Origin: an uncultured Candidatus Saccharibacteria bacterium
GTDB lineage: Bacteria > Patescibacteriota > Minisyncoccia > Phycocordibacterales > CSBR16-119
Assembly: GCA_964355515.1 (NCBI GenBank)
Contig: CAYHDV010000002.1
Span: forward strand, 6,622 to 70,621
Length of the DNA stretch: 64,000 nucleotides
Reading direction: 5' to 3'
Shown here: one piece after another, positions 11,502 to 63,425 of the stretch
Position numbering within the stretch: position 1 is the first letter of the stretch
How the letters are laid out: each line of letters opens with the position of its first letter
The notes under the pieces: model-generated
Database searches by the model: none
What the model was told of the DNA's origin: nothing
Seen by the model: the letters and a program-made list of their open reading frames with translations, nothing else
Made by a program: the position numbers and the translations under genes

Positions 11502-12248
11502 ATGGGCATTCAAGAGAAAATTTTAAATTCTCTACAAAAACTAGGTTTCAGCGACAAAGAATCCAAGGTATATTTGTCTACTCTTGAATTAGGTGAAGCA
11601 ACAATCCAATCTATTTCAAAGCATTCTAAAATAAAGAGAACAAGTATTTATTATGTATTAGATAAACTGAAGAAAGATGGGTTTCTTATTGAATCAAAAA
11701 TAAATAAAAAAGCTCACTACGTGGCTATTTCTCCAAAAGAGCTGATGAAAAAAGTTAGAGAAAATGTGTATGAGTTTGAAAACGTTCTTGATGATTTAGA
11801 AAAAAGAAGACACAGTGTTTATCATAAACCCAGAGTTTATTTTCTCTACGGGGCAGCTGGTTTTAAGCACATCTGGGAAATGATTTTTGATTCAAATTGT
11901 AAGGAGTACTGGATTATAACTGAAGGAGAAAACTTTTTAGGTTTTGTTAAAGAAAAGTATATCTTAAAGGAGATTATAAAAGAGAAACAGAAAAGAGGAT
12001 TGAAAAGTCGGCAACTAATAGTGGATTCGCCCTATGCTAGAGCTTTGATCAAGAAAGACTCAATAGAAAATAGAGTATCCAAGATGCTACCGAAAGGTCA
12101 CCAGATACCTTTTACAGAAATAATTACTGACAAATTTGTGGCTTTCATTTCACCGAGATGGGACAACTTACTTTTTATTACAGAAAATGAAAGTTTTGCA
12201 AAAACAAGACAATCATTGTTTAGGCTAATTTGGGATTCAATTGAATAA
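11502..12248 (+). CDS. TrmB-family HTH transcriptional regulator
   Basis: N-terminus LGFSDKESKVYLSTLELGEATIQSISKHSKIKRTSIYYVLDKLKKDGFL matches the TrmB winged-helix pattern. Confidence 0.6.
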   Translation: MGIQEKILNSLQKLGFSDKESKVYLSTLELGEATIQSISKHSKIKRTSIYYVLDKLKKDGFLIESKINKKAHYVAISPKELMKKVRENVYEFENVLDDLEKRRHSVYHKPRVYFLYGAAGFKHIWEMIFDSNCKEYWIITEGENFLGFVKEKYILKEIIKEKQKRGLKSRQLIVDSPYARALIKKDSIENRVSKMLPKGHQIPFTEIITDKFVAFISPRWDNLLFITENESFAKTRQSLFRLIWDSIE

Positions 12249-12323
12249 AGGTTATTTGAAAATTTAAAAAAATGATATGATGTGTATATAGAGTTTTATA
12301 AATAATTTTTTTAAAAAATAAAC

Positions 12324-12386
12324 ATGGCAAAAGGAAATAATTCACAAAGAAAAGAAGTTAAGAAACCAAAAAAGCCAAAGAAGTAA
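12324..12386 (+). CDS. Tiny Lys-rich ORF (20 aa, MAKGNNSQRKEVKKPKKPKK); speculative
   Basis: ATG…TAA with an A-rich upstream region, followed by hairpin terminator aaaacctcgctagaacaatctggtgaggttttt at 12397..12432. Confidence 0.2.
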   Translation: MAKGNNSQRKEVKKPKKPKK

Positions 12387-12426
12387 AACAAAAACCTCGC
12401 TAGAACAATCTGGTGAGGTTTTTGTT

Positions 12427-12993
12427 TTACTTTCTTTTTTTAATAATAAGGTAGGACATGAGAGAGTTCACCACGATCATGGTTATTGAGTGGAGCATGG
12501 TGGCTATGTTGTAAGTCTCAAGAGAAAACAGGGCTAGACCATGGCGTGAGGCATTCATGGTGTAGAGGATGTGACGCTCTGTCTCGGGGTGATTTTTGGC
12601 TTTTCTTATGGTTGGGATAAAAGCGATTAGGTCAATTGATACCACAATGACAACAGAGAGTGTCGGATCATTTGTTAGTGCCCAAGGGATCAACCCCAAG
12701 AGTGCTACCACTAAGAATATGGTGTCTCTTTTTTCTATATTTTTGAAACCATAGCGAAGAGAAAAAAGAAAAATAATTATGGTAAATATCTCAGAAGCTC
12801 CTGTTGGGATAGCTCCCACCCCAGCCCCTTTTGCCACCTGTCCAAAAAATGTAACCGCAGAAACAATAGACCAGACCAGCCAAGTATAGGGGTGTGGCTG
12901 AATCTCTTTTTTGAATACACTTATAAGGTATGGAATATTTCCAACTATCGCCATCCCGGCTGCAACAAGAGCAATTATGGTTTTTATTAACAT
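12427..12993 (-). CDS. Polytopic membrane protein, unknown function
   Basis: 188-aa ORF with 5–6 hydrophobic helices. Confidence 0.5.
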   Translation of the reverse strand: MLIKTIIALVAAGMAIVGNIPYLISVFKKEIQPHPYTWLVWSIVSAVTFFGQVAKGAGVGAIPTGASEIFTIIIFLFSLRYGFKNIEKRDTIFLVVALLGLIPWALTNDPTLSVVIVVSIDLIAFIPTIRKAKNHPETERHILYTMNASRHGLALFSLETYNIATMLHSITMIVVNSLMSYLIIKKRK

Positions 12994-14585: not shown

Positions 14586-16043
14586 ATGTCAGGAAACGGA
14601 AGTATTGTAAAATTTGATGAAGTGACTTTTCACTTTGGAATAAAAAAGCCCATCATGACTGAGGCTAGTTTTTCTCTTCGGAGAGGCTCAAAAGTGACCC
14701 TCATGGGCCAAAACGGTGCAGGTAAGAGTACTTTGTTTAAACTACTTACAAACTCACTTCAGCCAGAAGAAGGGCGTATTATCATTGATCCCAAGCTCAC
14801 TATCGCGCTTTCTCGGCAGGTTATTCCTAGAGAGGAGCTTGGGTTTACAGTGAGGGAGTTTTTTCAATCAGTTTTCAGAGAAAAGGTGTATGATTTGGAT
14901 CCAAGAATAAAAGATACCCTTGAGATAGTGAACCTCCCTTTGAGTGATTATGATCGAAAGATCAAAGATTTTTCTGGTGGCCAACAAGCTAGACTGCTTC
15001 TTGCCTCTGCATTGATTCAGAAACCAGATCTACTTTTGCTTGATGAGCCTACGAACAACCTAGATCATTCAGGAATTAATCACTTAACTGAATTTCTAAA
15101 AAATTATGATAAAACAGTGGTGGTTATTTCCCATGATGCTGAGTTTCTAAATGCCTTCACTGAAGGTGTGCTTTATTTAGATATATTCACAAAGAAAATT
15201 GATAACTATGTTGGTAATTACTTTGATGTAATCAAGCAGATCGAGATAAGAGTAGAAAAAGAAAAAAGACTAAACGCTCGACTTGATAAGAGTATCCAAG
15301 AAAAAAAGGACAAAGCAAACTTCTTTGCAAACAAGGGAGGGCGACTTCGAGCTGTGGCAAAACAGATGAGAGAAGTAGCAGAGGAGGCTGAGGCAAACAA
15401 AGTAGATGGATACAAAGAAGATAAAACAATCCGACCTTTCGTTATTCCTATTCAAGAAAATATAGGGGGTGAAATTGTAAAAATAGAGTCTGTTGAAAGG
15501 CTTCACAACGGCAAAGTACAAACAAGAGAAGCAAATATTTCTCTAAGAAAGGGAGACAGGCTACTCTTGGCTGGTCCAAATGGAATTGGGAAGAGTACCT
15601 TACTTGAGTCTCTAGCTACAGGGAAGGCAAAGGGTGTGACTATCGCAAGTGGAATTGAGATTGGTTATTATCGGCAGGATTTCTCAACTCTCAACTTTGA
15701 AGATACTGTTTTTAAATCTCTATCTGAAATTATGGATAGGGTAGATGAGCAGGCCCTCAGGTCCATGGCGTCTGGGTTTTTGATTGCAGGAGATATGATG
15801 TACACAAAAATTGGAGATTTGTCCGAAGGGCAGAAGGGCCTTGTAGCATTTGCTAGGCTAGTACTCCAAAAACCAGGACTTCTTATTATGGATGAGCCGA
15901 CAAACCACATAAACTTCCGGCACCTTCCTGTTATCGCAAAGGCTCTTGATCAGTATGAGGGAGTCATGATAGTTGTTTCCCATGTGCCAGAGTTTTTAGA
16001 AAAAATCCACATCAATCAGACATTAGATTTGGGGAAAAAGTAA
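14586..16043 (+). CDS. ABC-F family ATPase (tandem ABC domains, no TMD; ribosome-associated type)
   Basis: Two Walker A motifs (GQNGAGKST, GPNGIGKST), two ABC signatures (LSGGQQARL, LSEGQKGLV), two Walker B motifs and an inter-domain linker. Confidence 0.85.
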   Translation: MSGNGSIVKFDEVTFHFGIKKPIMTEASFSLRRGSKVTLMGQNGAGKSTLFKLLTNSLQPEEGRIIIDPKLTIALSRQVIPREELGFTVREFFQSVFREKVYDLDPRIKDTLEIVNLPLSDYDRKIKDFSGGQQARLLLASALIQKPDLLLLDEPTNNLDHSGINHLTEFLKNYDKTVVVISHDAEFLNAFTEGVLYLDIFTKKIDNYVGNYFDVIKQIEIRVEKEKRLNARLDKSIQEKKDKANFFANKGGRLRAVAKQMREVAEEAEANKVDGYKEDKTIRPFVIPIQENIGGEIVKIESVERLHNGKVQTREANISLRKGDRLLLAGPNGIGKSTLLESLATGKAKGVTIASGIEIGYYRQDFSTLNFEDTVFKSLSEIMDRVDEQALRSMASGFLIAGDMMYTKIGDLSEGQKGLVAFARLVLQKPGLLIMDEPTNHINFRHLPVIAKALDQYEGVMIVVSHVPEFLEKIHINQTLDLGKK

Positions 16044-16079
16044 GGATATAATTTTCATTTTTTATTATATAATTGGGCA

Positions 16080-18805
16080 ATGATGAATATTCGGGCAATA
16101 AAGCTTTTGGCCTTTTCGGGTGTATTTTTATTCTTTCTTTTTGTTGGTTCTCCAAAAGCCTTTGCTGCGTGTGGGGATAGTATCACAGGTGGTTCTGGAA
16201 CAGTTGGAAGTCCTTATCTGATTAGCACACCAACAGAACTTGCAGCGATTTCAAATTGTTTAGGTGGAGGAAATGCAAGTAAATATTTTCTTTTGGATAG
16301 TAATATTGATTTAAATGTTTCTCCATATAACACTGGAACGGTTGGACTCCAATCGGAACAAGTGGCAACGGTTTCTATGGAAAGTTTGATGGGGATTTTT
16401 ATACTATTTCTAATTTGTATTTCAACAGCTCCGGCACTGACTATGTTGGACTCTTTGGGTATGTTTCAAGTGGGGCCACAATTTCAGATCTTATTTTGCA
16501 AAACGCGACAGCCACTGGTGATTACGGTGTTGGAGCACTAGCTGGGGTAAATTACGGTGCCATTTCTCAGGTTGGAGTTATCGATGGATCAATAACAGGG
16601 AGTCAGCGTGTCGGAGGACTTATTGGGTCAAATTACGGTTCCATGACAAAAACATATTCTGATAACAGTGTGTATTTTGTTCCAGTTGGGGCAACATGTT
16701 GTGTGGGTGGACTCGCCGGAGAAGCTTATAGTGGTGGAACAATAAATAATTCGTATTCACGAAGTAATATCGTCATAACATATCATGCTTCTAACCAAGG
16801 AGCTGCTGGTGGGGTGTATGGAAACGACTATACTAGTAGCACCAAAACAAGACTTTATTCAACAGGATCTATTACTATGGTGTCTGGGAACCTTCCGTCA
16901 TCCGTGGGTGGACTTGCTGGATCTAATTATACAAGCACCACAGAATCATACTGGGACACGCAGACATCGGGACTTGGGACATCCAGTGGTGGTGCAGGAG
17001 TTGTCGGGAAAACGACTTCACAGATGAAAACTCAAGGCACATATACTAACTGGGACTTCAGCACCGTGTGGGCCATTGACGGCGTAAATAATGATGGATA
17101 TCCATATTTGTTGTGGCAAGATTTTTCTGATGTGACCGCACCGACAATTAGCTCTGTTTCCTCTGACAAAGCAAATGGCTCTTATAAAGCAGGGGAAGTG
17201 ATTGATATTGATGTGACTTTTTCTGAGGCAGTAACTTCAACTGGAGACGTGACAGTGACTCTTGAAACCGGGGACACTGATCGAACCTGTGTTTTTACCG
17301 TATCAGCAAGCGCAAGTGGAACATGTAACTATACTGTCCAAGCCGGAGACACAACCGCCGACCTTACTGTGAGCTCAATCTCAGGAACAATCGTTGACAC
17401 TTCGTCAAACGCAATGAGTAACTTCGCACCATCAACAAATCTGGCAGCCAACAAAGCGCTTGTGATTGATACAACTGCCCCAACCATTTCGACACTATCG
17501 CCAGCGGATGGTGCAACGGGAGTTTCTGCAACGGCGAACCTTGTTTTGACTTTTGATACAGCGGTTGATGTGGAAACAGGAGAGATCGCGATTAAAAGAT
17601 CTAGTGATGATTTCACCATTGAAACCGTTGATGTGACGAGTGGTTTTGTTACTGGTACCGGAACAACAACCATTACGGTAAATCCGACTACAATATTATC
17701 TAGCCTCACTCAATATTATATCCAAATCGACGCAACGGCATTTGATGACATAGCAGGGAATAGTTATGCAGGAATTTCTAATACGACTTCATGGAATTTT
17801 ACCACTGCTGATACTAGTGTTCCAGTAGTGTCTAGTTTTTCTCCGCTTGATGGAGCGACCGATGTGGAAATTGATGCGAATTTAGTTATTACCTTTGATG
17901 AAATAGTAGACGTAGAAACGGGAAATATCCTCATCAAAAAATCCTCTGATGATTCAACAATTGAAACTATTGATGTCGCAGGGGGGCTTGTAACAGGTAC
18001 AGGAACTGCAATCATTACTATTAATCCCAGCGTGGCTCTTCTTGAAAATACATCATATTACATCAATATTGATGCGACCGCTTTTGATGATGCTTCTGGG
18101 AATAGTTTTGCAGGGATTTCAGACTCATCAACATGGGCCTTTGTGACAGCTTCTAGCAGTTCTGGGTCGTCAACTATTCCTCCACCATTGTGTAGAGCTG
18201 TAGCTACACCGAGCATGGTATACAAAGGAGAAAAAAGTATGATCTCAATAGTGCCAGAGTATATTGCTGGTGTTACTAGGTATTATGTTAAAGATGAGAG
18301 CACTAAAGCTCTCTATGATCAAGGAAGAGATATCACTCTTTACCCCACAAAGACAGGGGAGTATTCATTTGCAACCATAAATGAATGGGGGGCAAATTTT
18401 TGTAGTGTTTCAATCACTGCATTAGAGAAAAAAGCAGAACCTGTTATTTCTATAGATGAAAGTGATTCCTCAGAAAATGATGTAGGCTTTGGTGATCGTG
18501 TAGTAGTGGCTGTGGTAGACTCTGAGCCTACAATAGATGAGGTATCTGGAGAGGATGATAAAAAAATAATTCCGATTCTTCCTTTTACTCGAACTCTAAA
18601 GAGATATAACAAGGGGGATGATGTGCTATTACTTCAAGTTATTCTTAATTTATTAAATGTTGATAATCTTACAAAATTAGAAGAAGATGGAGACTTTGGT
18701 TCTCGGACAGAAAAAGCAGTCAAATCATTTCAAAAATTTTATGAGTTAGAAGAAGATGGAGTTGTGGGTAGAAATACTCGAGGAGCTTTGAATAAGAGAG
18801 ATTAG
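16080..18805 (+). CDS. Large secreted cell-surface protein: signal peptide, GLUG-like repeats, tandem Ig-like domains, C-terminal PG_binding_1; apparent frameshift near 16330
   Basis: ORF 16080..16541 (signal peptide, …DSNIDLNVSPYN) and ORF 16415..18805 form one gene. Frame 2 upstream of 16415 reads HWNGWTPIGTSGNGFYGKFDGDFYTISN, the canonical start of GLUG-type adhesins, back to a stop at 16328. Two 115-aa Ig-like repeats lie at ~17471..18160. C-terminal LLLQVILN…EEDGDFGSRTEKAVKSFQ is a peptidoglycan-binding domain. Confidence 0.7.
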
Positions 18806-18910
18806 AGTTTTTTGGTGTGTTAGGGTTTTGATAAATATCAAAAAATAGACCTTGTTTGACAAAAACATGTGTTAGAGGTAATATCTTTCTAAATTTGAAA
18901 AAAGAAAGAG

Positions 18911-19528
18911 ATGAGCAAAATTAAAGATCCGAAAGAGAAGTACAGATATCTTAAAAGAGAACTGAGGAGCCTTGGCTTCATAAGAGAGACCAAAAAAATG
19001 TGGAATCTCTATCAAGAAAAATTTGGTATTGAGCTTTCAAAGGCCGCCCATGTCCCTTACACAAAAGATGCTGCAAGTTTCATCTTTGACATAAGGGGCT
19101 ATCAGGTGGTTGTCCGGACCACCTACGACCCATCTTTGAAAGATTTTTCTAAAAAGGGAAGTCTGTACGTGGTTATTCGGAAGGACTCACAGGCTATTTT
19201 CTCTAGGCAAATCCATCGTAAGGGAAATTTCCAATACAAAGTGATTCGTTTTGCAAAAGAGCTTGCTAAACAGCTCAAAGTCAGACCACTCGATTCTAGG
19301 AAAATACCAATGATTTTAGAGAGAGTGTCATATGGAAACATGGCATGGAAATCAGTTGATGGTACGGAGAGAAAGGTTTTCTTTGTTGGGTCCCCAAAAG
19401 AAATTCTTGATTTGGTAAAAGCAAAGGATTACTATGATCAATTTGTCACCAAAAAGAGGGGTGTCAAAACCAGGATCAGAGAATTCAAAAAGACATCAAA
19501 GGTGGGAACGCCAGAGAATGTTGATTGA
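18911..19528 (+). CDS. Hypothetical basic protein
   Basis: 205-aa ORF followed by terminator hairpin agccgcccaggatgggcggct at 19539..19566. Confidence 0.5.
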   Translation: MSKIKDPKEKYRYLKRELRSLGFIRETKKMWNLYQEKFGIELSKAAHVPYTKDAASFIFDIRGYQVVVRTTYDPSLKDFSKKGSLYVVIRKDSQAIFSRQIHRKGNFQYKVIRFAKELAKQLKVRPLDSRKIPMILERVSYGNMAWKSVDGTERKVFFVGSPKEILDLVKAKDYYDQFVTKKRGVKTRIREFKKTSKVGTPENVD

Positions 19529-20920: not shown

Positions 20921-20995
20921 TGGAATGCTATCCGTAGCATTCCTCACCTCCACCAACTTCGCTAATCTGCTCAAAATAAAAAATCCTATCCTGAG

Positions 20996-21068
20996 AGCCA
21001 GAGAGAAGATTCGAACTCCCGACCTTCGCTTTACAAAAGCGTTGCTCTACCAACTGAGCTACTCTGGC
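20996..21068 (-). tRNA. tRNA-Thr(UGU), 73 nt, CCA not encoded
   Basis: Minus-strand sequence GCCAGAG-TA-GCTC-AGTTGGTA-GAGC-A-ACGCT-TTTGTAA-AGCGA-AGGTC-GGGAG-TTCGAAT-CTTCT-CTCTGGC-T. It has a 7-bp acceptor, canonical D-arm, U33/A37, anticodon TGT and a 5-nt variable loop. Confidence 0.85.
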
Positions 21069-29126: not shown

Positions 29127-29534
29127 ATGAAAAAGAATGAAAAACAAAAAATAGCAAAAGACACCATTCCACGAAGGTCTTCTGCGGGTATTGGACTTTT
29201 TGCAAGAGAAGATATCAAAAAAGGTGAATTTATTATTGAATATGTTGGGGAGATTGTAGACAGGAAAGAAGCTGACAATAGAGGTGGTAAATATCTTTTT
29301 GAGACAAACAAAAACCGTGTTGTTGATGGTAAAGATAGGTCAAACAAAGCGCGATATATAAATCATGCGTGCAAACCAAATGCTGAAGTGACTATCGAGA
29401 GAGGGCATATAAATATCTATGCTATTAAAAATATAAAAGCCGAAGAGGAGATAAATTATGATTATGGTAAAGAGTATACTGATGAGTATTGTACTCCATG
29501 CCTGTGTTCCACATGCGTAGCTAAGAAGTCTTAA
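29127..29534 (+). CDS. Minimal SET-domain protein (putative protein-lysine methyltransferase)
   Basis: GIGLFAREDIKKGEFIIEYVGE…RYINHACKPNAEV…INYDYG plus a post-SET Cys cluster (CTPCLCSTC). Confidence 0.8.
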   Translation: MKKNEKQKIAKDTIPRRSSAGIGLFAREDIKKGEFIIEYVGEIVDRKEADNRGGKYLFETNKNRVVDGKDRSNKARYINHACKPNAEVTIERGHINIYAIKNIKAEEEINYDYGKEYTDEYCTPCLCSTCVAKKS

Positions 29535-41978: not shown

Positions 41979-42389
41979 TTATTCAAAGTAATCGCTGTCT
42001 ACTTTTTTGACTTGATATGTGGCAACAATACTAACACCTAAATTAAATTCAATCATTAATTTTGCCAGTTCTTTACCGTTTATAAGTACTATTTCCATAG
42101 ATGACCTATTCCTCTCAATTGTCTCTCTTGCTTGTTTTGTATATTCAGAAGTAGTAATAAAAACACCCTTATTTGCACCTCGACTAGACATTGATCCAAT
42201 AAAATTACGCAACTCAACATCTCCAACACTGTTTTCCCAACGTTTTGCTTGTATATAAATTTTACTCAAACCAAGTCTGTCTTCACTAATAATTCCGTCT
42301 ATTCCACCATCTCCCGATTTACCGATAACAACTCCAGCGTCTTTTAGTGATCCGCCATAACCCATTGAGGTTAATAACTTTACAACCAA
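41979..42389 (-). pseudogene. Mrr-like restriction endonuclease catalytic domain, N-terminally truncated at a palindromic repeat
   Basis: Mrr_cat motifs (GKSGDGGIDGI…IYIQAKRW…VELRNFIGSM). The reading frame extends upstream (…NEILTEELLERVKLISPSDFEYLVV) to a stop that abuts repeat 42457..42483. There is no ATG start and no Mrr_N domain. Confidence 0.65.
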
Positions 42390-47153: not shown

Positions 47154-47270
47154 AAAGCCAAGCAGTTGGCTTTCTTCCCGTCGCTCAAAAAATCAAAAGC
47201 CGCCTTTTCAGGCGACTTAAGATTTTTACGAGCTCCGGGAGCAGGGATCGAACCTGCGACCAATCGATTA

Positions 47271-47850
47271 CACATTTTCCTAATGTTTCCAAAAGGGGTG
47301 GACTATATCATATCCAGTCATCATTTCTGATGCGATGGACCGAGGCGCTTCGACCACGCTTTTCGTGGGCTACTCCCTTGTGGGATAGTCTCTGAACCTT
47401 CAATTGGATTTCTCCAAAAGCTTGGCTGCTGATTACCCACAGCATTACCTGTTTGGGCTTCCAGACAATTCACCTCGTTTTCAACCTACATTTCTATAGG
47501 AAGCTGCGTTACACCGTCGTGCACTTCAGCATGACAATTTGCACAAAGTAAGACACATTTGTCTAGTTCTTTTTGTACTTTTATCCATGCTCTTGTAACA
47601 CCTCTTGCAGAAATTCCAAAAGATTTTTTGGAAGGATCGATATGATGGAAGTTTAATGCCCTTGATGATTTTTTATAACCACAAATGACACATACACCTC
47701 CTTTATATTCGATCGATTTCGTCATGAGAAGTTTCCTTCTTTTGACAACTGCTTTTTTAAGGTATTCTGCACGATCAGCATATGTTCTTTTTTCTTTGCT
47801 TGGCATATACACTGTATTCTACCATGCTTAGAAAAAGGGAACGTGAGTTC
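47271..47850 (-). ncRNA. Group I self-splicing intron (580 nt) with embedded HNH ORF
   Basis: Conserved core elements on the minus strand: GGTTCAGAGACTA (P7 5' strand/R element) and GATATGATATAGTCCACC (S element/P7 3' strand). The intron ends in G before the 3' exon and the 5' exon ends in U. Confidence 0.75.
47486..47812 (-). CDS. Intron-encoded HNH homing endonuclease
   Basis: CVICG…NFHHIDPSKK…LLCANCHAEVHDG, an HNH zinc-finger nuclease motif. Lies entirely inside the group I intron. Confidence 0.8.
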   Translation of the reverse strand: MYMPSKEKRTYADRAEYLKKAVVKRRKLLMTKSIEYKGGVCVICGYKKSSRALNFHHIDPSKKSFGISARGVTRAWIKVQKELDKCVLLCANCHAEVHDGVTQLPIEM

Positions 47851-47946
47851 ACAGTCGATTGCTCTACCGCTGAGCTATCCCGGAATACTGGCATATCTAA
47901 TTAAAGATACTAAAATATTCTATCAAAAAAGTGGTAAAATGCAACC

Positions 47947-58962: not shown

Positions 58963-59502
58963 ATGAATGATACAACTTTTTCAGACCCAGAAAAGATATT
59001 AAAACAATTTCCAATAAGACCATCTGAAGTTGTGGCAGATATTGGAGCTGGAATGGGTGTTTATAGCAGACTCGCGGCACATGCTGTGGGGAAACATGGA
59101 TCTGTTTATGCTATAGATGTTCAAATCTCTTTTGTAGATTCTCTGAAAAAAACAGCTATAAAAGAAGACTTGGAACAACTCCACGTTCTTTGGGCAGATG
59201 CTGAGCTTCCAAATGGGACAAAACTTGCAGATGACTCAGTCGATGTCGTGATACTGACAAATGTTCTCTTTACCATTGAAGACAAGCCGGGATTGCTAGC
59301 GGAAATAAAACGAATTCTTAAATCAAATGGAAGAATACTAGTGGTTGATTGGCAGGATAGTTTCGGGGGTATTGGACCGCACCCTAGCCATGTTGTCCCT
59401 GAGAAAACCGCTAGAAATTTATTTACAACACATGGGTTTGATTTTATCAAAAATGTTTCTGCCGGAGAGCACCATTATGGTATGATTATACATAACAAAT
59501 AA
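58963..59502 (+). CDS. Class I SAM-dependent methyltransferase
   Basis: VADIGAGMGVYS (motif I), VVILTNVL and ILVVDW motifs. Confidence 0.75.
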   Translation: MNDTTFSDPEKILKQFPIRPSEVVADIGAGMGVYSRLAAHAVGKHGSVYAIDVQISFVDSLKKTAIKEDLEQLHVLWADAELPNGTKLADDSVDVVILTNVLFTIEDKPGLLAEIKRILKSNGRILVVDWQDSFGGIGPHPSHVVPEKTARNLFTTHGFDFIKNVSAGEHHYGMIIHNK

Positions 59503-59504
59503 TT

Positions 59505-60821
59505 ATGACTGAGAAAAAAAACATATTTCAAACAGTACTCCTTGTTGTTTTTGGCTTTGGTATTGTCCTTGCGGTTACTTTGTTTTCTTTATCAAAGGCT
59601 ACTTCTTCCAAGAATGTTTCAAATGTCGTGTTTTGGGGGACATTTCCTCCCAGCTCTATGCTGGAAGCACTTGACCTTATAAATGATAATTCAGAAACAA
59701 ATTTTGTATCTGTTACCTATGTAGAGAAAAATCCCGAAACTTACAATGCAGAACTTGTGGAAGGATTTGCCTCAGGGACAGGTCCTGATATTTTCCTCAT
59801 AAATCAAGACATGATTGTTCCATATCAAAACAAAATTTCTCCTCTTCCATATGAGAGTTTCCCAGAAAGAGATTTTGCACTTAGATACACCGATGGTGCA
59901 AAAATCTTTCTTTCAAACGAAGGAGTATTCGCCTTTCCTTTGGGGGTGGATCCTCTGGTGATGTATTACAACAAAAGCATGTTCAATACTGCTGGGATAG
60001 TGAATCCTCCGTCTCTGTGGTCACAGTTTAGTGGACTAGTTCCTCTTCTCACAAAAAAAGATGAAAACAAAAATATCCTCAAAAGTGGTCTTGCCTTTGG
60101 TCAATTCTCAAATATCCAATATGCAAATAATATTTTAGAAACAATGCTACTCCAGCTGGGTGACCCTATCGTAGTCCGAGACGCTGTGGGCAATTTTTCT
60201 TCTGTAGTAAACAATTCAAACAGCACCGCCACAAATCCCTTGATTCTTTCTATGGAGTTTTTTACCAACTTCTCAGACCCTCTTCTAGACACGTATTCTT
60301 GGAACAGCGCACTATCTAGTGCAGAAGATATGTTCGTTCAAGATAGACTTGCCATATATTTTGCGCCAGCGAGTCGTTTTCTGGATATCCAACGAAAAAA
60401 CATAAACCTTAACTACGATATATCAAAAATCCCCCAAGTAAATGAAAACACAAACTTCGTTACCTCAGGTGAGTTTTATGCTATTGCTGTTGCCAAGAGC
60501 TCGAAGTCTCCTCAGGCATCTTTCACAGCTGCGAACCTCATTTCAAATGGTCCTGCCACAAATTCTATCGTTAGTGCAAATAAGCTCGCTCCAGTCCGAA
60601 GAGACCTACTAACCACAAACCCTCTAGACTCGTACGGGAGAGCGCTCCGAGAATCTGCCCTTATTTCTTATACATGGCTAAACCCAGACGCGGGAGCGAC
60701 TCAAGCCTATTTCAAAGAAGCGATAGATACTGTTGTTCGTGGTTCTGTGAGCGCTTCTGCTGCTGCAAGAAGAGTAGATAGTCAGCTTGTATTATTATTA
60801 AATTCTTTTAACCAAAAATAA
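59505..60821 (+). CDS. Membrane-anchored ABC-type extracellular solute-binding protein (SBP family 1), orphan
   Basis: N-terminal TM anchor, VVFWGTF…ASGTGPDIFL…DPLVMYYNKSMFNTAGIVNPPSLW, typical of sugar SBPs. No permease or ATPase is adjacent. Confidence 0.65.
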   Translation: MTEKKNIFQTVLLVVFGFGIVLAVTLFSLSKATSSKNVSNVVFWGTFPPSSMLEALDLINDNSETNFVSVTYVEKNPETYNAELVEGFASGTGPDIFLINQDMIVPYQNKISPLPYESFPERDFALRYTDGAKIFLSNEGVFAFPLGVDPLVMYYNKSMFNTAGIVNPPSLWSQFSGLVPLLTKKDENKNILKSGLAFGQFSNIQYANNILETMLLQLGDPIVVRDAVGNFSSVVNNSNSTATNPLILSMEFFTNFSDPLLDTYSWNSALSSAEDMFVQDRLAIYFAPASRFLDIQRKNINLNYDISKIPQVNENTNFVTSGEFYAIAVAKSSKSPQASFTAANLISNGPATNSIVSANKLAPVRRDLLTTNPLDSYGRALRESALISYTWLNPDAGATQAYFKEAIDTVVRGSVSASAAARRVDSQLVLLLNSFNQK

Positions 60822-60823
60822 TT

Positions 60824-61276
60824 ATGAAAGCTTTATTAAAAAGATTCTTACTGGTTCCGCTTATCTTATCTCAATTGTTTTTCTTGCCGGGTAGTGTGCT
60901 GATTGCCAATGCGGCTGAAAACGGTACACCAGGGCACATAATCCCAGACTGCAATCAGGGGGTAAATAGTGATGGTCAATTCACAAATAGCTCTGGAGTG
61001 GAAGACGCTTGTGACTTTGAGGACCTCCTACAATTAGTGAGAAACCTTATTCGGTTTATGGCTCTGTACCTCACAGCTCCAGCCCTGACTATTGCTATAG
61101 CATACGCTGGGGCTCTACTTCTTTTCTCTGGTGGAGGAAATGAAGGGAAGAGAAAGGAAGCAAAAGATGTATTTGAGAAGGTTATACTGGGGCTTATAGC
61201 CATGGTAGCCGCGTGGTTTATAGTAGAAGCAATATACACAGGTCTAGGGTATGGAGGATTTCTGCAGTTTAGCTAG
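60824..61276 (+). CDS. TrbC/VirB2-like pilin paralog 1 (signal peptide + 2 TM)
   Basis: Sec signal peptide, variable Cys-containing N-domain, then TM–charged loop (GGGNEGKRKEAKD)–TM. Confidence 0.55.
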   Translation: MKALLKRFLLVPLILSQLFFLPGSVLIANAAENGTPGHIIPDCNQGVNSDGQFTNSSGVEDACDFEDLLQLVRNLIRFMALYLTAPALTIAIAYAGALLLFSGGGNEGKRKEAKDVFEKVILGLIAMVAAWFIVEAIYTGLGYGGFLQFS

Positions 61277-61404
61277 TGTATACTAGGTATGTACTTTTTG
61301 ATTTGGTTCTTTGAGCCATAAGCCAAAAAGAAAAACAATTATTTTTTAATTAATAAAAAGGTGAGGCCTTCTGCGAAAAAGCTGGTGGAATCCCTTCTAA
61401 TATA

Positions 61405-61812
61405 ATGAATTTATTTTTAGTAAAATTATATAATCTACTGAATCCTCTAAGTGTTTTTGCTCAGCACGATGGCTCTAACTCAACAACTTCTACTGGAGGT
61501 GTTGTTGAAAACATCCAAATAGAGTTTACAAACCCTCTAGGAGGCAATGGCACAAATCCTCTCGGGATAGATAGCCTTACAGAGCTTCTCTCTGCATTAC
61601 TAAAAATTATAATCACTGTAGGGATTCCACTTGTGGTCTTGGCTATTATCTATACTGGATTTCTCTTCGTCTCTGCGATGGGGGACAAAGCAAAGATAGA
61701 GGAAGCCAGAAGAGCTTTTCTTTGGACAGTTGTAGGAGCTATTATTATACTTTCATCTTGGGTTATTGCAGAAGCCATAGAAGGGACAATTACTCAAATT
61801 ATCAACTCATAA
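61405..61812 (+). CDS. TrbC/VirB2-like pilin paralog 2
   Basis: Signal peptide (SVFA|Q), then TM–GDKAKIEEARR–TM. Confidence 0.55.
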   Translation: MNLFLVKLYNLLNPLSVFAQHDGSNSTTSTGGVVENIQIEFTNPLGGNGTNPLGIDSLTELLSALLKIIITVGIPLVVLAIIYTGFLFVSAMGDKAKIEEARRAFLWTVVGAIIILSSWVIAEAIEGTITQIINS

Positions 61813-61821
61813 CAATTTATT

Positions 61822-62373
61822 ATGATAACTAACTCTATTAAAAAAATATTTGTAAGTACATTGTCTGCCTTTGCAATAATATCTTTTATTGTTTTGGTAC
61901 CCAATTATTCTTTGGCTCAAACACTGGAAAACCCTTTTGGTAATATAAACAACACACTAGGGAATACCCAGCTTGAGGGTGGAGATATTGGGAATTTTGA
62001 TCCTGGGCAAACAACCTTGGGAGGGAACTATATACCTGGGACTGGATATACCCCTCCTTCTGGTGGTTCAACTGGTGGCACTTGTAGTACTGTCTATGTG
62101 TCAGGAACAGGTCTTGGGGGTATCTTGGATCTTATAGGGTGTTTTTTCCGGTCTATTATTCCACTTCTTGTTACCGCAGCGGTAATTGTTTTCGTATATG
62201 GAGTTGTAAACTATATCCGAAATGCAGATAGTGCAGACCAAAGAAAAGAGGGAGGGATGTTTATGCTTTATGGGGTTATCGCCTTGTTTGTTATGGTTTC
62301 TATTTGGGCTCTCGTGGGTATCCTGGGGGCGACCCTTGGGGTGGATGCTGTTCTTCCACAGTTGCCAGAATAA
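61822..62373 (+). CDS. TrbC/VirB2-like pilin paralog 3 (Gly-rich variable domain)
   Basis: Signal peptide (SLA|Q), Gly/Thr-rich 60-aa insert, then TM–NADSADQRKEGG–TM. Confidence 0.55.
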   Translation: MITNSIKKIFVSTLSAFAIISFIVLVPNYSLAQTLENPFGNINNTLGNTQLEGGDIGNFDPGQTTLGGNYIPGTGYTPPSGGSTGGTCSTVYVSGTGLGGILDLIGCFFRSIIPLLVTAAVIVFVYGVVNYIRNADSADQRKEGGMFMLYGVIALFVMVSIWALVGILGATLGVDAVLPQLPE

Positions 62374-62446
62374 AAGCTTTACATTTGCCAGTACATGATA
62401 TAATCAAAGAGTATTTTATTAGTTATTAGTTTAATATTGAATTTAT

Positions 62447-62803
62447 ATGAAAAAAATTATTTTATCAATGACAGGTCTTATGGCTCTTGCACCAGCATTT
62501 GCTTTTGCACAAACTCAGCCAACATTATTTGACATATTGACACTTAAAATAGCGCCAATCTTGAATGCTATTATTCCACTTCTTATCACAGCCGGAGTGA
62601 TCTTCTTTGTTTTGGGAATTGTGCAATATGTTATTGCTGATGATGAAGAAGCAAAGAAAAAAGGAAAAGACAGAATGCTATACGGTATTATTGGACTCTT
62701 TGTTATAGTTACTTTCTGGGGACTTGTAACAGTTCTTCAAAACACTCTTGGTATATCTGCTCCTAGTGTTCCTCCAACAATTAATATCAACCCATCACAA
62801 TAA
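62447..62803 (+). CDS. TrbC/VirB2-like pilin paralog 4
   Basis: Signal peptide (AFA|Q), then TM–DDEEAKKKGKDR–TM. Confidence 0.6.
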   Translation: MKKIILSMTGLMALAPAFAFAQTQPTLFDILTLKIAPILNAIIPLLITAGVIFFVLGIVQYVIADDEEAKKKGKDRMLYGIIGLFVIVTFWGLVTVLQNTLGISAPSVPPTININPSQ

Positions 62804-62815
62804 TTTTCTTTTATC

Positions 62816-63148
62816 GTGTTTCTTCTACCATACATAGCCTTTGCTGCTCCTGAAAATATAAACGAGCTTGTTCGAGTGATAAACAAATTTATCATCAATC
62901 CTATAATCGTTTTGCTTTTTATTGGTGCACTATTGTTCTTTGTATGGGGACTGATCATGTTTATCAAAGATAGCGCGAGTGCTGATGGACGTACAAAAGG
63001 TGCAAACAATATCATGTATGGGCTTCTGGGTATGCTTATCATGGTTTCAGTATTCTTTATACTCGGAGTCATCATGGACACCTTTGGGGTTGATAATATC
63101 AACTTAAATCCAGGAGCAGATCAGGACTTCGTGACTATTGATCTATAG
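62816..63148 (+). CDS. TrbC/VirB2-like pilin paralog 5
   Basis: Short signal peptide (AFA|APE), then TM–DSASADGRTKGAN–TM. Confidence 0.55.
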   Translation: MFLLPYIAFAAPENINELVRVINKFIINPIIVLLFIGALLFFVWGLIMFIKDSASADGRTKGANNIMYGLLGMLIMVSVFFILGVIMDTFGVDNINLNPGADQDFVTIDL

Positions 63149-63204
63149 AAAAAACACCAGAGAAATCTGGTGTTTTTTGTATGGGGAAATCTGAGAGTTC
63201 ATCT

Positions 63205-63357
63205 TTTTTGTCATTCCCGCATGTTCGGGAACCCAGAACACCTCAATATTCTAATTTTTTGTCCTCCCTGCGTAGGCGGTACTTCAAAATACCTTAATAT
63301 TCTAATCTTGTGTCATCCCTGCGTAGGCAGGGATCCAGAGTATCTAGATATTCTAAA
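63205..63357. repeat. Three tandem ~51-bp repeats, each a GTCATYCC-type hairpin plus the conserved tail YYAATATTCTAA
   Basis: Units 63205..63255, 63256..63306 and 63307..63357. Confidence 0.8.
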
Positions 63358-63390: not shown

Positions 63391-63425
63391 AAAAAGCCCC
63401 GCGTGAAATTCACGCGGGGCTTAAA
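63391..63425. terminator. Bidirectional hairpin terminator
   Basis: aaaaaagccccgcgtgaaattcacgcggggctt. Confidence 0.65.

Follow-up and report, generated by a model that had tools for sequence, protein, structure and literature searches.

Gene organization and protein architecture of the array

We analysed an array of five tandem pilin-like genes in a 64-kb window (the whole stretch of DNA under study, 64,000 nucleotides of contig CAYHDV010000002.1 from a Patescibacteria genome). The proteins were named P1 to P5 and correspond to the open reading frames (ORFs) ORF1 to ORF5, in order along the + strand; all positions given here are those of the window. A preliminary description of this DNA had reported five same-strand ORFs of 110–183 amino acids (aa) lying head to tail, and all five were confirmed on the + strand at the coordinates listed in Table 1. 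The gaps between the genes had been put at 13–130 bp; the measured gaps from P1 to P5 were 128, 9, 73, and 12 bp, so that two of the four fall below the reported range. Each of the five genes contained its own start codon and an uninterrupted frame. The array was preceded by a gene encoding an S-adenosylmethionine (SAM)-dependent methyltransferase (MTase) and by a gene encoding a membrane-anchored protein with the fold of a solute-binding protein (SBP); the MTase-SBP and SBP-P1 gaps were 2 bp each. A hairpin was found directly after the stop codon of P5, as an inverted repeat (I2) with arms 94% complementary. It was not called in a simple terminator scan; its form is terminator-like and may mark the end of the operon. 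A reading of ORF4 and ORF5 as a single gene with a read-through stop was rejected; the two are in-frame in the window, but in other loci the P4-P5 gap was 3–16 nt and the frames varied.

All five ORFs were found to contain two C-terminal hydrophobic segments of ~19–25 residues (Kyte-Doolittle 19-residue peaks of 1.9–2.9), which are the predicted transmembrane (TM) helices TM1 and TM2, separated by a loop of 10–14 residues that is first acidic and then basic. The loop sequences were NEGKRKEAKD in ORF1, GDKAKIEEARR in ORF2, ADSADQRKEG in ORF3, DDEEAKKKGKDR in ORF4, and SASADGRTKG in ORF5. The C-terminal module that had been described earlier, consisting of two hydrophobic helices and an acidic-then-basic loop, was thus present in every one of the five proteins. 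Hydropathy, alignment, and the AlphaFold2 (AF2) model all agreed with the architecture of the PF18895 family, that is, a small protein with two C-terminal TM helices and a short charged loop. The AF2 model of P4 was a helical hairpin with helices from residues 27–63 and 67–101, and its predicted local distance difference test (pLDDT) score was >90 over residues 41–90. Fold searches with the pilin model returned generic helical hairpins only; a monomer model was used, which does not discriminate against solved pilus subunits.

Table 1. Features of the methyltransferase, solute-binding protein and pilin unit, in window coordinates (cleavage sites are marked by ↓)
Feature	Position	Strand	Description
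Class I SAM-dependent MTase	58963–59502	+	179 aa; first gene of the unit; Pfam Methyltransf_31/11/25
Membrane-anchored SBP-fold protein	59505–60821	+	438 aa; N-terminal TM helix ~2–32, then two-lobe SBP domain
Pilin P1 (ORF1)	60824–61276	+	150 aa; signal peptide, mature N-terminus, TM-loop-TM core ~75–140
Pilin P2 (ORF2)	61405–61812	+	135 aa; Gly/Thr/Asn-rich segment; TM-loop-TM core ~60–124
Pilin P3 (ORF3)	61822–62373	+	183 aa; signal peptide, long Gly/Thr-rich hypervariable segment; core ~104–171
Extended −10 element TGATATAAT	62396–62404	+	P3-P4 spacer; putative internal promoter of P4-P5; consensus match only
Pilin P4 (ORF4)	62447–62803	+	118 aa; classical signal peptide (..AFAFA↓Q); core ~33–98
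Pilin-like P5 (ORF5)	62816–63148	+	110 aa, GTG start; core ~22–88; variable C-terminal tail
Terminator-like hairpin	63145–63182	+	17-nt arms, 4-nt loop, A-run 5′, T-run 3′

The N-terminal parts were less uniform. A Sec-type signal peptide had been assigned to each ORF, and this assignment held for ORF1, ORF3, and ORF4, in each of which a K-rich n-region and a hydrophobic core precede an A-x-A or FAQ/LAQ site; the signal peptides of P1, P3, and P4 ended in ANA↓A, LAQ or FAQ. It did not hold for ORF5, whose leader was only 10 residues long (MFLLPYIAFA↓AP) and had no n-region and no canonical signal peptide, whereas the N-terminus of ORF2 (MNLFLVKLYNLLNPLSVFA↓Q) was only weakly hydrophobic. The leader was short or absent in all orthologs of P5, and none was present in the more distant genomes. 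Despite their weak hydrophobicity, the first 20 residues of P2 (MNLFLVKLYNLL(N/T)PL..FA; DNA 61405–61464) were near-invariant among close relatives; distant P2 orthologs carried ordinary signal peptides at the same N-terminal position, and the conservation of this leader is unusual. A cleaved-lipoprotein reading of the five proteins was rejected because the N-terminal leaders of all five ORFs were devoid of cysteine, and hence of a lipobox.

The variable N-terminal segments were also found as described previously, Gly/Thr-rich in ORF3 and with a Cys pair in ORF1. The mature N-terminus of P1 contained one conserved Cys pair (IIPDC...CDF), and this motif was kept in the orthologs. P3 contained a Cys pair just before TM1, which had been missed, and P4 contained a very short mature N-terminus, the shortest of the array. 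Cys pairs directly preceding TM1 were conserved in P1 and P3 and, at distant loci, in P4 as well, in agreement with an extracytoplasmic N-terminus.

Family membership and conservation of the unit

The five proteins were compared with PF18895 (T4SS_pilin; gathering score 26.6 bits), PF04956 (TrbC; gathering score 27.9 bits), and NF045849 (cutoff 40 bits). Against PF18895, P1 to P5 scored 32.0, 36.7, 27.4, 48.9, and 17.2 bits, respectively, so that P1-P4 were above the gathering score. The best score of the window against PF04956 was that of P2 (22.9 bits, E 1e-4), which was below the gathering score. Against a hidden Markov model (HMM) of relatives from outside the window, in which P5 orthologs were included and ORF4 of the window was excluded, P5 scored 93.8 bits (E 1.7e-28). 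The same unit of genes was found in related genomes (hereafter the cassette), and when 53 cassette pilins from 11 loci were scanned singly, 52 matched PF18895, 17 matched PF04956 at E ≤ 0.01 (best E 6.7e-7), and no family besides these two recurred in more than 2 of the 53. With 52 of 53 genes from 11 loci matching one Pfam family, the array is, as judged by profile comparison, far beyond chance. The sub-threshold matches to PF04956 indicate kinship at the level of the superfamily, not membership of that model. The earlier assignment of the array to a TrbC/VirB2-like T4SS_pilin family in a genome of the candidate phyla radiation was therefore borne out, and membership in PF18895 is solid by these profile scores. 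The best NCBIfam match of P2-P5 was NF045849, the 'pilin-like conjugal transfer protein' of a Mycoplasma integrative conjugative element, at 23–33 bits, below its cutoff. Homologs of the pilins were labelled 'pilin [Candidatus Paceibacterota]' in the source records, and the source names of the pilin and SBP homologs were Candidatus Paceibacterota, Paceibacteria, Nomurabacteria, Wolfebacteria or Parcubacteria. These names place the genome in the class Paceibacteria of the Patescibacteria.

Kinship with genuine VirB2 was examined with four annotated TrbC/VirB2 pilins adjoining virB3 on conjugative plasmids of the MPF_T (mating-pair formation type T) group, including the pKM101-type TraM (pilus structure 8cw4). 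The HMM of the P4 class gave 15.7 bits against the VirB2 of p271A and 13.4 bits against TraM of pKM101, and in 1000 full and 1000 hydropathy-preserving (block) shuffles these scores were never reached. In the hhalign alignment of the family with VirB2 the two were in register, with the signal-peptide cleavage sites aligned and, after them, an 'IP' motif where TM1 begins. In a sequence search of the PDB with the family profile the best match was again TraM of pKM101, with an E of 0.26 that is not significant alone. A modest kinship with genuine VirB2, beyond composition and hydropathy, is suggested by these comparisons.

The cassette was examined in 16 genomic contexts. These were reached from pilin and SBP homologs, through exact-protein look-ups, and through an SBP scan of species-representative genomes. 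The unit MTase, SBP, and pilin genes, in this order, recurred in all 16 contexts; the MTase was directly upstream of the SBP in 15 and absent in locus L033. Thirteen contexts contained five pilin genes and two (L023 and L033) contained six; locus L008 ends at a contig end. Every context with an intact SBP gene had the SBP followed by 5–6 pilin genes, down to an SBP identity of 26% (L033), and in L010 the cassette was kept despite different flanking genes. The order P1-P2-P3-P4-P5 was found, by BLAST class assignment, in all 10 complete loci tested, with one extra P3/P4-like copy in L023. In a neighbour-joining tree of 91 core columns from 11 loci, P1, P2, and P5 were each monophyletic, P3 and P4 formed a sister pair, and the P5 class was sister to the other classes. 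The monophyly of P1, P2, and P5 places the duplications before the divergence of these lineages. The array of our window is situated between gyrA and rbfA-infB, a position of core-chromosome synteny.

A few loci departed from this pattern. Locus L012 (a Campbellbacteria metagenome-assembled genome; L012:10001–11314) contained the only SBP relative without a downstream array, at 29% identity; its SBP gene was split into three ORFs in the standard code, perhaps because it is decaying or was misassembled. In L011 (13285–14346) the P5-class gene encoded 353 aa, compared with ~100 elsewhere, by a long C-terminal extension on the two-TM core. The downstream flank was remodelled in L025, with an RVT_1 reverse transcriptase (15035–16441), and in L033, with a tyrosine integrase (18088–19008); in both, the rbfA-infB neighbours were missing from the downstream region retrieved and the cassette was retained.

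The SBP was above threshold for SBP_bac_8 (PF13416, 50.2 bits) and SBP_bac_1 (PF01547, 47.5 bits), and its AF2 model was confident (pLDDT 94.2, pTM 0.88). The top Foldseek matches in the PDB were oligosaccharide-binding proteins (5f7v, 4r9g, 6rjy, and MalE) and UgpB, at E 7e-22 to 1e-19 and 13–17% identity; no PDB sequence match was found at E ≤ 1e-3. No ABC permease was found in the 64-kb window, where the sole ABC protein was a double-ATPase of the ABC-F type (14586–16043), and no gene for an importer permease or ATPase was located next to the SBP in any of the 16 contexts. The protein therefore has an SBP fold and cannot be assigned as a working component of an ABC importer. Invariant aromatic and polar residues were found in the SBP family, and they are compatible with a sugar pocket. 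The PDB sequence matches of the MTase were generic methyltransferases (3dh0 and 3i9f), together with phosphoethanolamine N-methyltransferases at E 1.5e-9; the latter similarity is only a lead. The preliminary description had mentioned an orphan membrane-anchored SBP just upstream of the array; the protein is present and TM-anchored, but it is a conserved partner of the array, not a mere neighbour. The pairing of an SBP or an MTase with pilins was not mentioned in the literature searched, and the text of the largest survey of these arrays (PMC12102498) is devoid of 'solute', 'substrate-binding', and 'ABC' and contains 'methyltransferase' only for KsgA near virB4. The linkage of SBP and MTase to the array is apparently an undescribed conserved partnership.

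The spacer between P3 and P4 was the longest gap of the array in most loci (58–249 bp). Of 14 loci, 12 had the motif TGnTAnnnT in this spacer, and 6, the window among them, had the strict form TGnTATAAT. In the window (62374–62446) and in loci L004-L035, the spacer contained the −10 element, then an AAGGTCG box, and then a TTATTAG/A box ~20–45 nt before the ATG; this conserved P4 leader could be a regulatory leader. From the motif we infer that P4 and P5 receive extra transcription. P4 is probably the major subunit: it has its own promoter motif, no other mature N-terminus of the array is as short, and its family score (48.9 bits) is the highest.

Proposed function and alternative readings

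Previous studies reported tandem VirB2-like arrays in Patescibacteria, so the kind of feature described here is known. In a search of 3035 Patescibacteria genomes with the PF18895 and PF04956 models, Quinonero-Coronel et al. (2025) found 441 VirB2 arrays of 2–11 genes in 383 assemblies, with a mean identity of 25% and a maximum of 54%; 2474 virB4 genes were found in the 3035 genomes, and a pilin gene was near virB4 in 1135 of 1948 assemblies and away from it in 813 (PMC12102498). In Southlakia epibionticum the pilin array and type IV secretion system (T4SS) are essential (cluster SEML1_0006-0019; Wang et al., 2023, PMC10633639; PMC12857230), and a 2025 review described six divergent VirB2-like pilins in this species and raised a pilus on a monoderm as a possibility (PMC12857230). 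Table S3 of the survey contained four Paceibacteria genomes (three Nomurabacteria and one of the Parcubacteria group) with VirB4, VirB3, VirB6, and TrsD and one proximal pilin; in the same four genomes, T_virB2 and PrgF matches lie three coding sequences (CDS) apart and far from virB4, and these are candidate loci for the present cassette (PMC12102498). The Patescibacteria T4SS is essential in the one species tested, is associated with no relaxase, and is suspected of transferring material between epibiont and host. The experimental work on it has all been carried out in Saccharimonadia.

The array of our window would count among the published ones. It agrees with the array definition of the survey (at least two PF18895/PF04956-positive genes in Patescibacteria, in tandem or with one non-pilin gene between them; PMC12102498), as PF18895 is matched by four genes in a row, at E <0.001 and a profile coverage >50%, and the fifth is adjacent. 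It resembles the published arrays, including that of S. epibionticum, in Pfam family, phylum, tandem divergent paralogs, chromosomal location, and the absence of a relaxase nearby; the paralogs here were 15–48% identical. The arrays of S. epibionticum and of the Microgenomatia in Table S3, however, are a few genes from virB4, whereas here none was found in at least 60 kb upstream and 10 kb downstream. The unit of our window also differs by its linked SBP gene, usually with an MTase gene, and by containing five ancient classes in fixed order instead of open-ended variation. What is new is a stable five-class pilin set in Paceibacteria with a conserved promoter structure, paired with a transporter-less tethered SBP and located apart from virB4. 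The cassette does not define a new kind of system. It offers handles for further work, namely the major-subunit class, the binding of host cell-wall glycans by the SBP, and the interaction of SBP and pilins.

The VirB2/TrbC pilins of diderm MPF_T systems (TraM of pKM101, 8cw4; VirB2 of Agrobacterium; TrbC of RP4) are alike in their signal peptide, short mature N-terminus, and two helices with a charged loop. They are of similar size (~70–100 mature residues) and show a weak, non-random sequence similarity to the proteins studied here. In contrast, the host here is monoderm, without an outer membrane, and neither virB3 nor virB4 is adjacent. The diderm MPF_T systems have one pilin, whereas the cassette has five co-conserved paralogs, several with long Cys-pair N-terminal extensions, and no enzyme for cyclisation or acetylation (TraF, TraX) was observed here.

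The reading that we favour, and consider probable, is that P1-P5 are pilins of the VirB2/TrbC superfamily belonging to a chromosomal, non-conjugative T4SS of the kind typical of Patescibacteria. It builds on the family, the hairpin architecture, the class orthology and order, the SBP and MTase linkage, the promoter motif, and the core-chromosome location, all of which were observed; from these we infer pilus assembly, dependence on VirB4, the major and minor roles, and the functions of the SBP and MTase. The MTase, the TM-anchored oligosaccharide-type SBP, and P1-P5 would form one conserved operon-like unit. Each pilin would enter the cytoplasmic membrane as a helical hairpin whose two ends face outward and whose charged loop faces inward. 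Cleavable Sec signal peptides would serve P1, P3, and P4 in this step, and P5 would do without a leader. A VirB4-type ATPase module (VirB4/TrsD/VirB3/VirB6), encoded elsewhere, would then extract the proteins and polymerise them, giving a short pilus or conduit of heteromeric composition at the site of host contact. P4 would be the bulk subunit, and P1-P3 would be minor or surface-decorating subunits that expose their Cys-bridged or Gly/Thr-rich, lineage-variable N-terminal segments. From its tether on the outer face of the membrane, the SBP-fold protein may cooperate with the pilus as a glycan receptor, an adhesin, or a cargo-capture component.

Several points weigh against this proposal. P5 was below the PF18895 threshold, and hhalign gave a weak match between the family and the four VirB2 proteins of IncN type (probability 8.7%, E 0.004). 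As had been stated for the window in the preliminary description, no VirB4, VirB6 or VirD4 was found there (Pfam; every ORF >400 aa was otherwise assigned), nor in the next 10 kb, and no VirB4 was found within 10 kb of the cassette in the 15 other contexts. The ATPase module of the genome was not located, and the connection with a T4SS is therefore based on family membership and the literature. The major and minor assignments have the promoter motif and sequence features as their sole basis. A pilus on Patescibacteria has been raised as a possibility only in reviews, and none has been seen as the product of these genes (PMC12857230).

An alternative is that the five proteins are VirB2/PrgF-like subunits that stay in the membrane and form a heteromeric ring or channel of fixed stoichiometry in a monoderm-type T4SS translocon, without an extended pilus. 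Small two-TM proteins, PrgF among them, may play such a part in the conjugation systems of Gram-positive bacteria. In the monoderm Patescibacteria the T4SS belongs to the MPF_FATA type, normally pilus-free; the PrgF profile matches 627 Patescibacteria proteins, and in the candidate Nomurabacteria and Parcubacteria loci mentioned above, the three-CDS distance between the PrgF and T_virB2 matches equals the P2-P5 spacing (PMC12102498). Five fixed classes in every genome resemble the subunits of one complex more than one pilin plus variants. PrgF (Enterococcus pCF10) and Mbov_0395 (NF045849) are likewise from monoderm hosts and have an acidic-then-basic loop, and P5 is like them a bare TM-loop-TM protein without a signal peptide. 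These two are, however, single genes in conjugative elements beside virB4-like genes; the NF045849 scores here were sub-cutoff, and the similarity to PrgF was marginal (5–7 bits with the class HMMs, equalled by 3–30 of 1000 shuffles; hhalign E 0.045). Long, hypervariable N-terminal segments outside the cell, Cys-bridged and reaching 86 aa in P3, are a feature more typical of the exposed surface of a filament, and the dedicated P4 promoter motif suggests unequal stoichiometry. We regard a membrane-resident ring as unlikely, and the link to PrgF as a lead only.

A bolder version of the pilus proposal extends it to a large clade of Paceibacteria, in which the pilins would have been uncoupled from the virB4 cluster and joined with the tethered SBP and the MTase in a pilus-based organelle for the capture of nutrients or signals. 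If true, the five classes would together build a single heteromeric conduit at the cell surface, which the SBP, replacing an ABC permease, would feed or would dock to glycans of the host; such an SBP-pilin organelle would have no described counterpart. We consider this version speculative and distinctly improbable.

Tandem diversification of the exposed domain, suggestive of antigenic or host-contact variation, had been proposed in the preliminary description. In this reading the array would be a diversification locus, changing or switching rapidly against host defences or for host range, as has been suggested for Patescibacteria arrays by analogy with Bartonella and Anaplasma (PMC12102498). 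The low identity of the paralogs (15–48%) agrees with it, as does the sixth gene of L023 and L033. The mature N-terminal segment was also the most variable part (21–33% identity), including its length, which for P3 was 23–86 aa across orthologs, whereas the hairpin core was near-invariant in length (63–70 aa) and 42–54% identical. Against it, a same-position ortholog of each paralog was found in every related genome checked, in fixed order, and the duplications are older than the lineages. In three genomes the same-position orthologs were 50–70% identical, compared with 15–48% for cross-position paralogs, and this is about the identity of the neighbouring MTase (61–72%) and SBP (59–65%); the pilin orthologs thus diverge about like these neighbours, with no excess rate overall. 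A comparison of DNA repeats found no recombination-grade repeats, long identical tracts or silent-copy features at the array, the only repeat among the paralogs being one 62-nt tract of P3 and P4 at 71% identity, and all five genes had own starts and intact frames. The virB2 paralogs of Bartonella and Anaplasma are alike in being multiple divergent tandem copies in a host-associated bacterium, and they are interpreted as antigenic or host-range variants (as given in PMC12102498), whereas the genes here are orthologously fixed and diverge at the rate of their neighbourhood. On these alignments and the core tree, the five genes are ancient fixed-order classes and not a fast-diversifying locus. 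The proposed variation was thus not borne out; we consider it very unlikely, and our findings argue against it as the default reading of such arrays. A mature N-terminal segment that varies between species still fits host-contact adaptation between lineages.

It was also considered that the unit is an uptake device independent of any T4SS, in which the SBP captures a host oligosaccharide and a channel of the five two-TM proteins (10 TM helices) replaces the ABC permease. The fixed place of the SBP directly upstream of the pilins wherever the SBP is intact is in line with this, as are the missing permease and importer ATPase, the closeness of the confident SBP model to oligosaccharide binders of ABC importers, the conserved residues compatible with a sugar pocket, and the absence of a T4SS ATPase from the window and the next 10 kb. 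The SBP is alike to the CUT1-type SBPs (MalE, Lmo0181, AbnE, and UgpB) in its two-lobe fold (Foldseek E 7e-22, TM-score 0.6–0.7) and its SBP_bac_1/SBP_bac_8 families; it differs by an identity of only 13–17%, a TM anchor, the lack of a lipobox, the lack of a permease or ATPase nearby, and pilin genes that always come next. The unit encodes no energising component, and we know of no transporter that depends on an SBP and consists of subunits like these. T4SS pilins define the family of the small proteins, whose sequences are also akin to genuine VirB2. The same family occurs inside virB4 clusters in other classes of Patescibacteria and is essential there (PMC12102498, PMC10633639). Such a device appears highly improbable.

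That the proteins are holins, bacteriocin-immunity proteins or generic two-TM proteins, with a Pfam match due to composition, is hardly tenable: they are short, hydrophobic, and of low information, with generic hairpins in fold searches, but 52 of 53 match one Pfam family, hydropathy-preserving shuffles fail to reproduce the VirB2 score, and the gyrA to rbfA-infB setting is core chromosome and not a prophage or bacteriocin locus. The possibility of holin or immunity proteins, already recognised in the preliminary description, was examined in Pfam, NCBIfam, PHROGs, and PADLOC, where no holin, immunity or defence match was found for the five proteins. A phage, holin or defence origin was rejected because PHROGs and PADLOC gave no matches, no relative of the pilins was found in 2.9 million viral contigs, and the context is one of housekeeping genes.

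Genomic setting and minor observations

The other large ORFs of the window encoded, by Pfam, RpoC, DnaG, RpoD, EF-Ts, S2, MreB/MreC, TGT, UvrB, HisRS, Def/Fmt, LepB, Pth, S1, and GyrA. The window lies within a 151,508-bp metagenomic contig (ENA ERZ4201063 NODE_43). On this contig, the genes in the 10 kb beyond the array encoded RbfA, IF-2, DUF4446, an aminotransferase, and ClpB, preceded by two unknown proteins.

Downstream of the cassette, a convergent gene pair was found on the − strand, from 63450 past the end of the window, encoding proteins of 377 and 143 aa (L001:11004–12137 and 12229–12660). The pair recurred at the same place in most related loci, with lengths of 309–538 aa and 143–246 aa, and the two proteins had no Pfam or PDB match. 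Between the terminator of the array and that of the convergent genes (63394–63422), three tandem 51-nt repeats were present at 63204–63356, 69–73% identical to the first. Each repeat contained a short GC-rich hairpin (gtcatTCCCgc...GGGAa) and ended in AATATTCTAA.

The window contained an intact tRNA-Thr (UGU) gene at 20995–21068 and a second one at 47232–47884 on the − strand. A group I intron of 580 nt (Rfam RF00028, 55.5 bits; core 47279–47560) splits the second gene in its anticodon loop, and this copy was detected by ARAGORN in intron mode only. The intron was found to contain an ORF (47486–47812) encoding a protein of 108 aa that is like HNH-type homing endonucleases. Two further genes of the window encoded a SET-domain protein of 135 aa (29127–29534; E 5e-26 against Pfam SET) and, at 41979–42389, a stand-alone Mrr-type restriction endonuclease.

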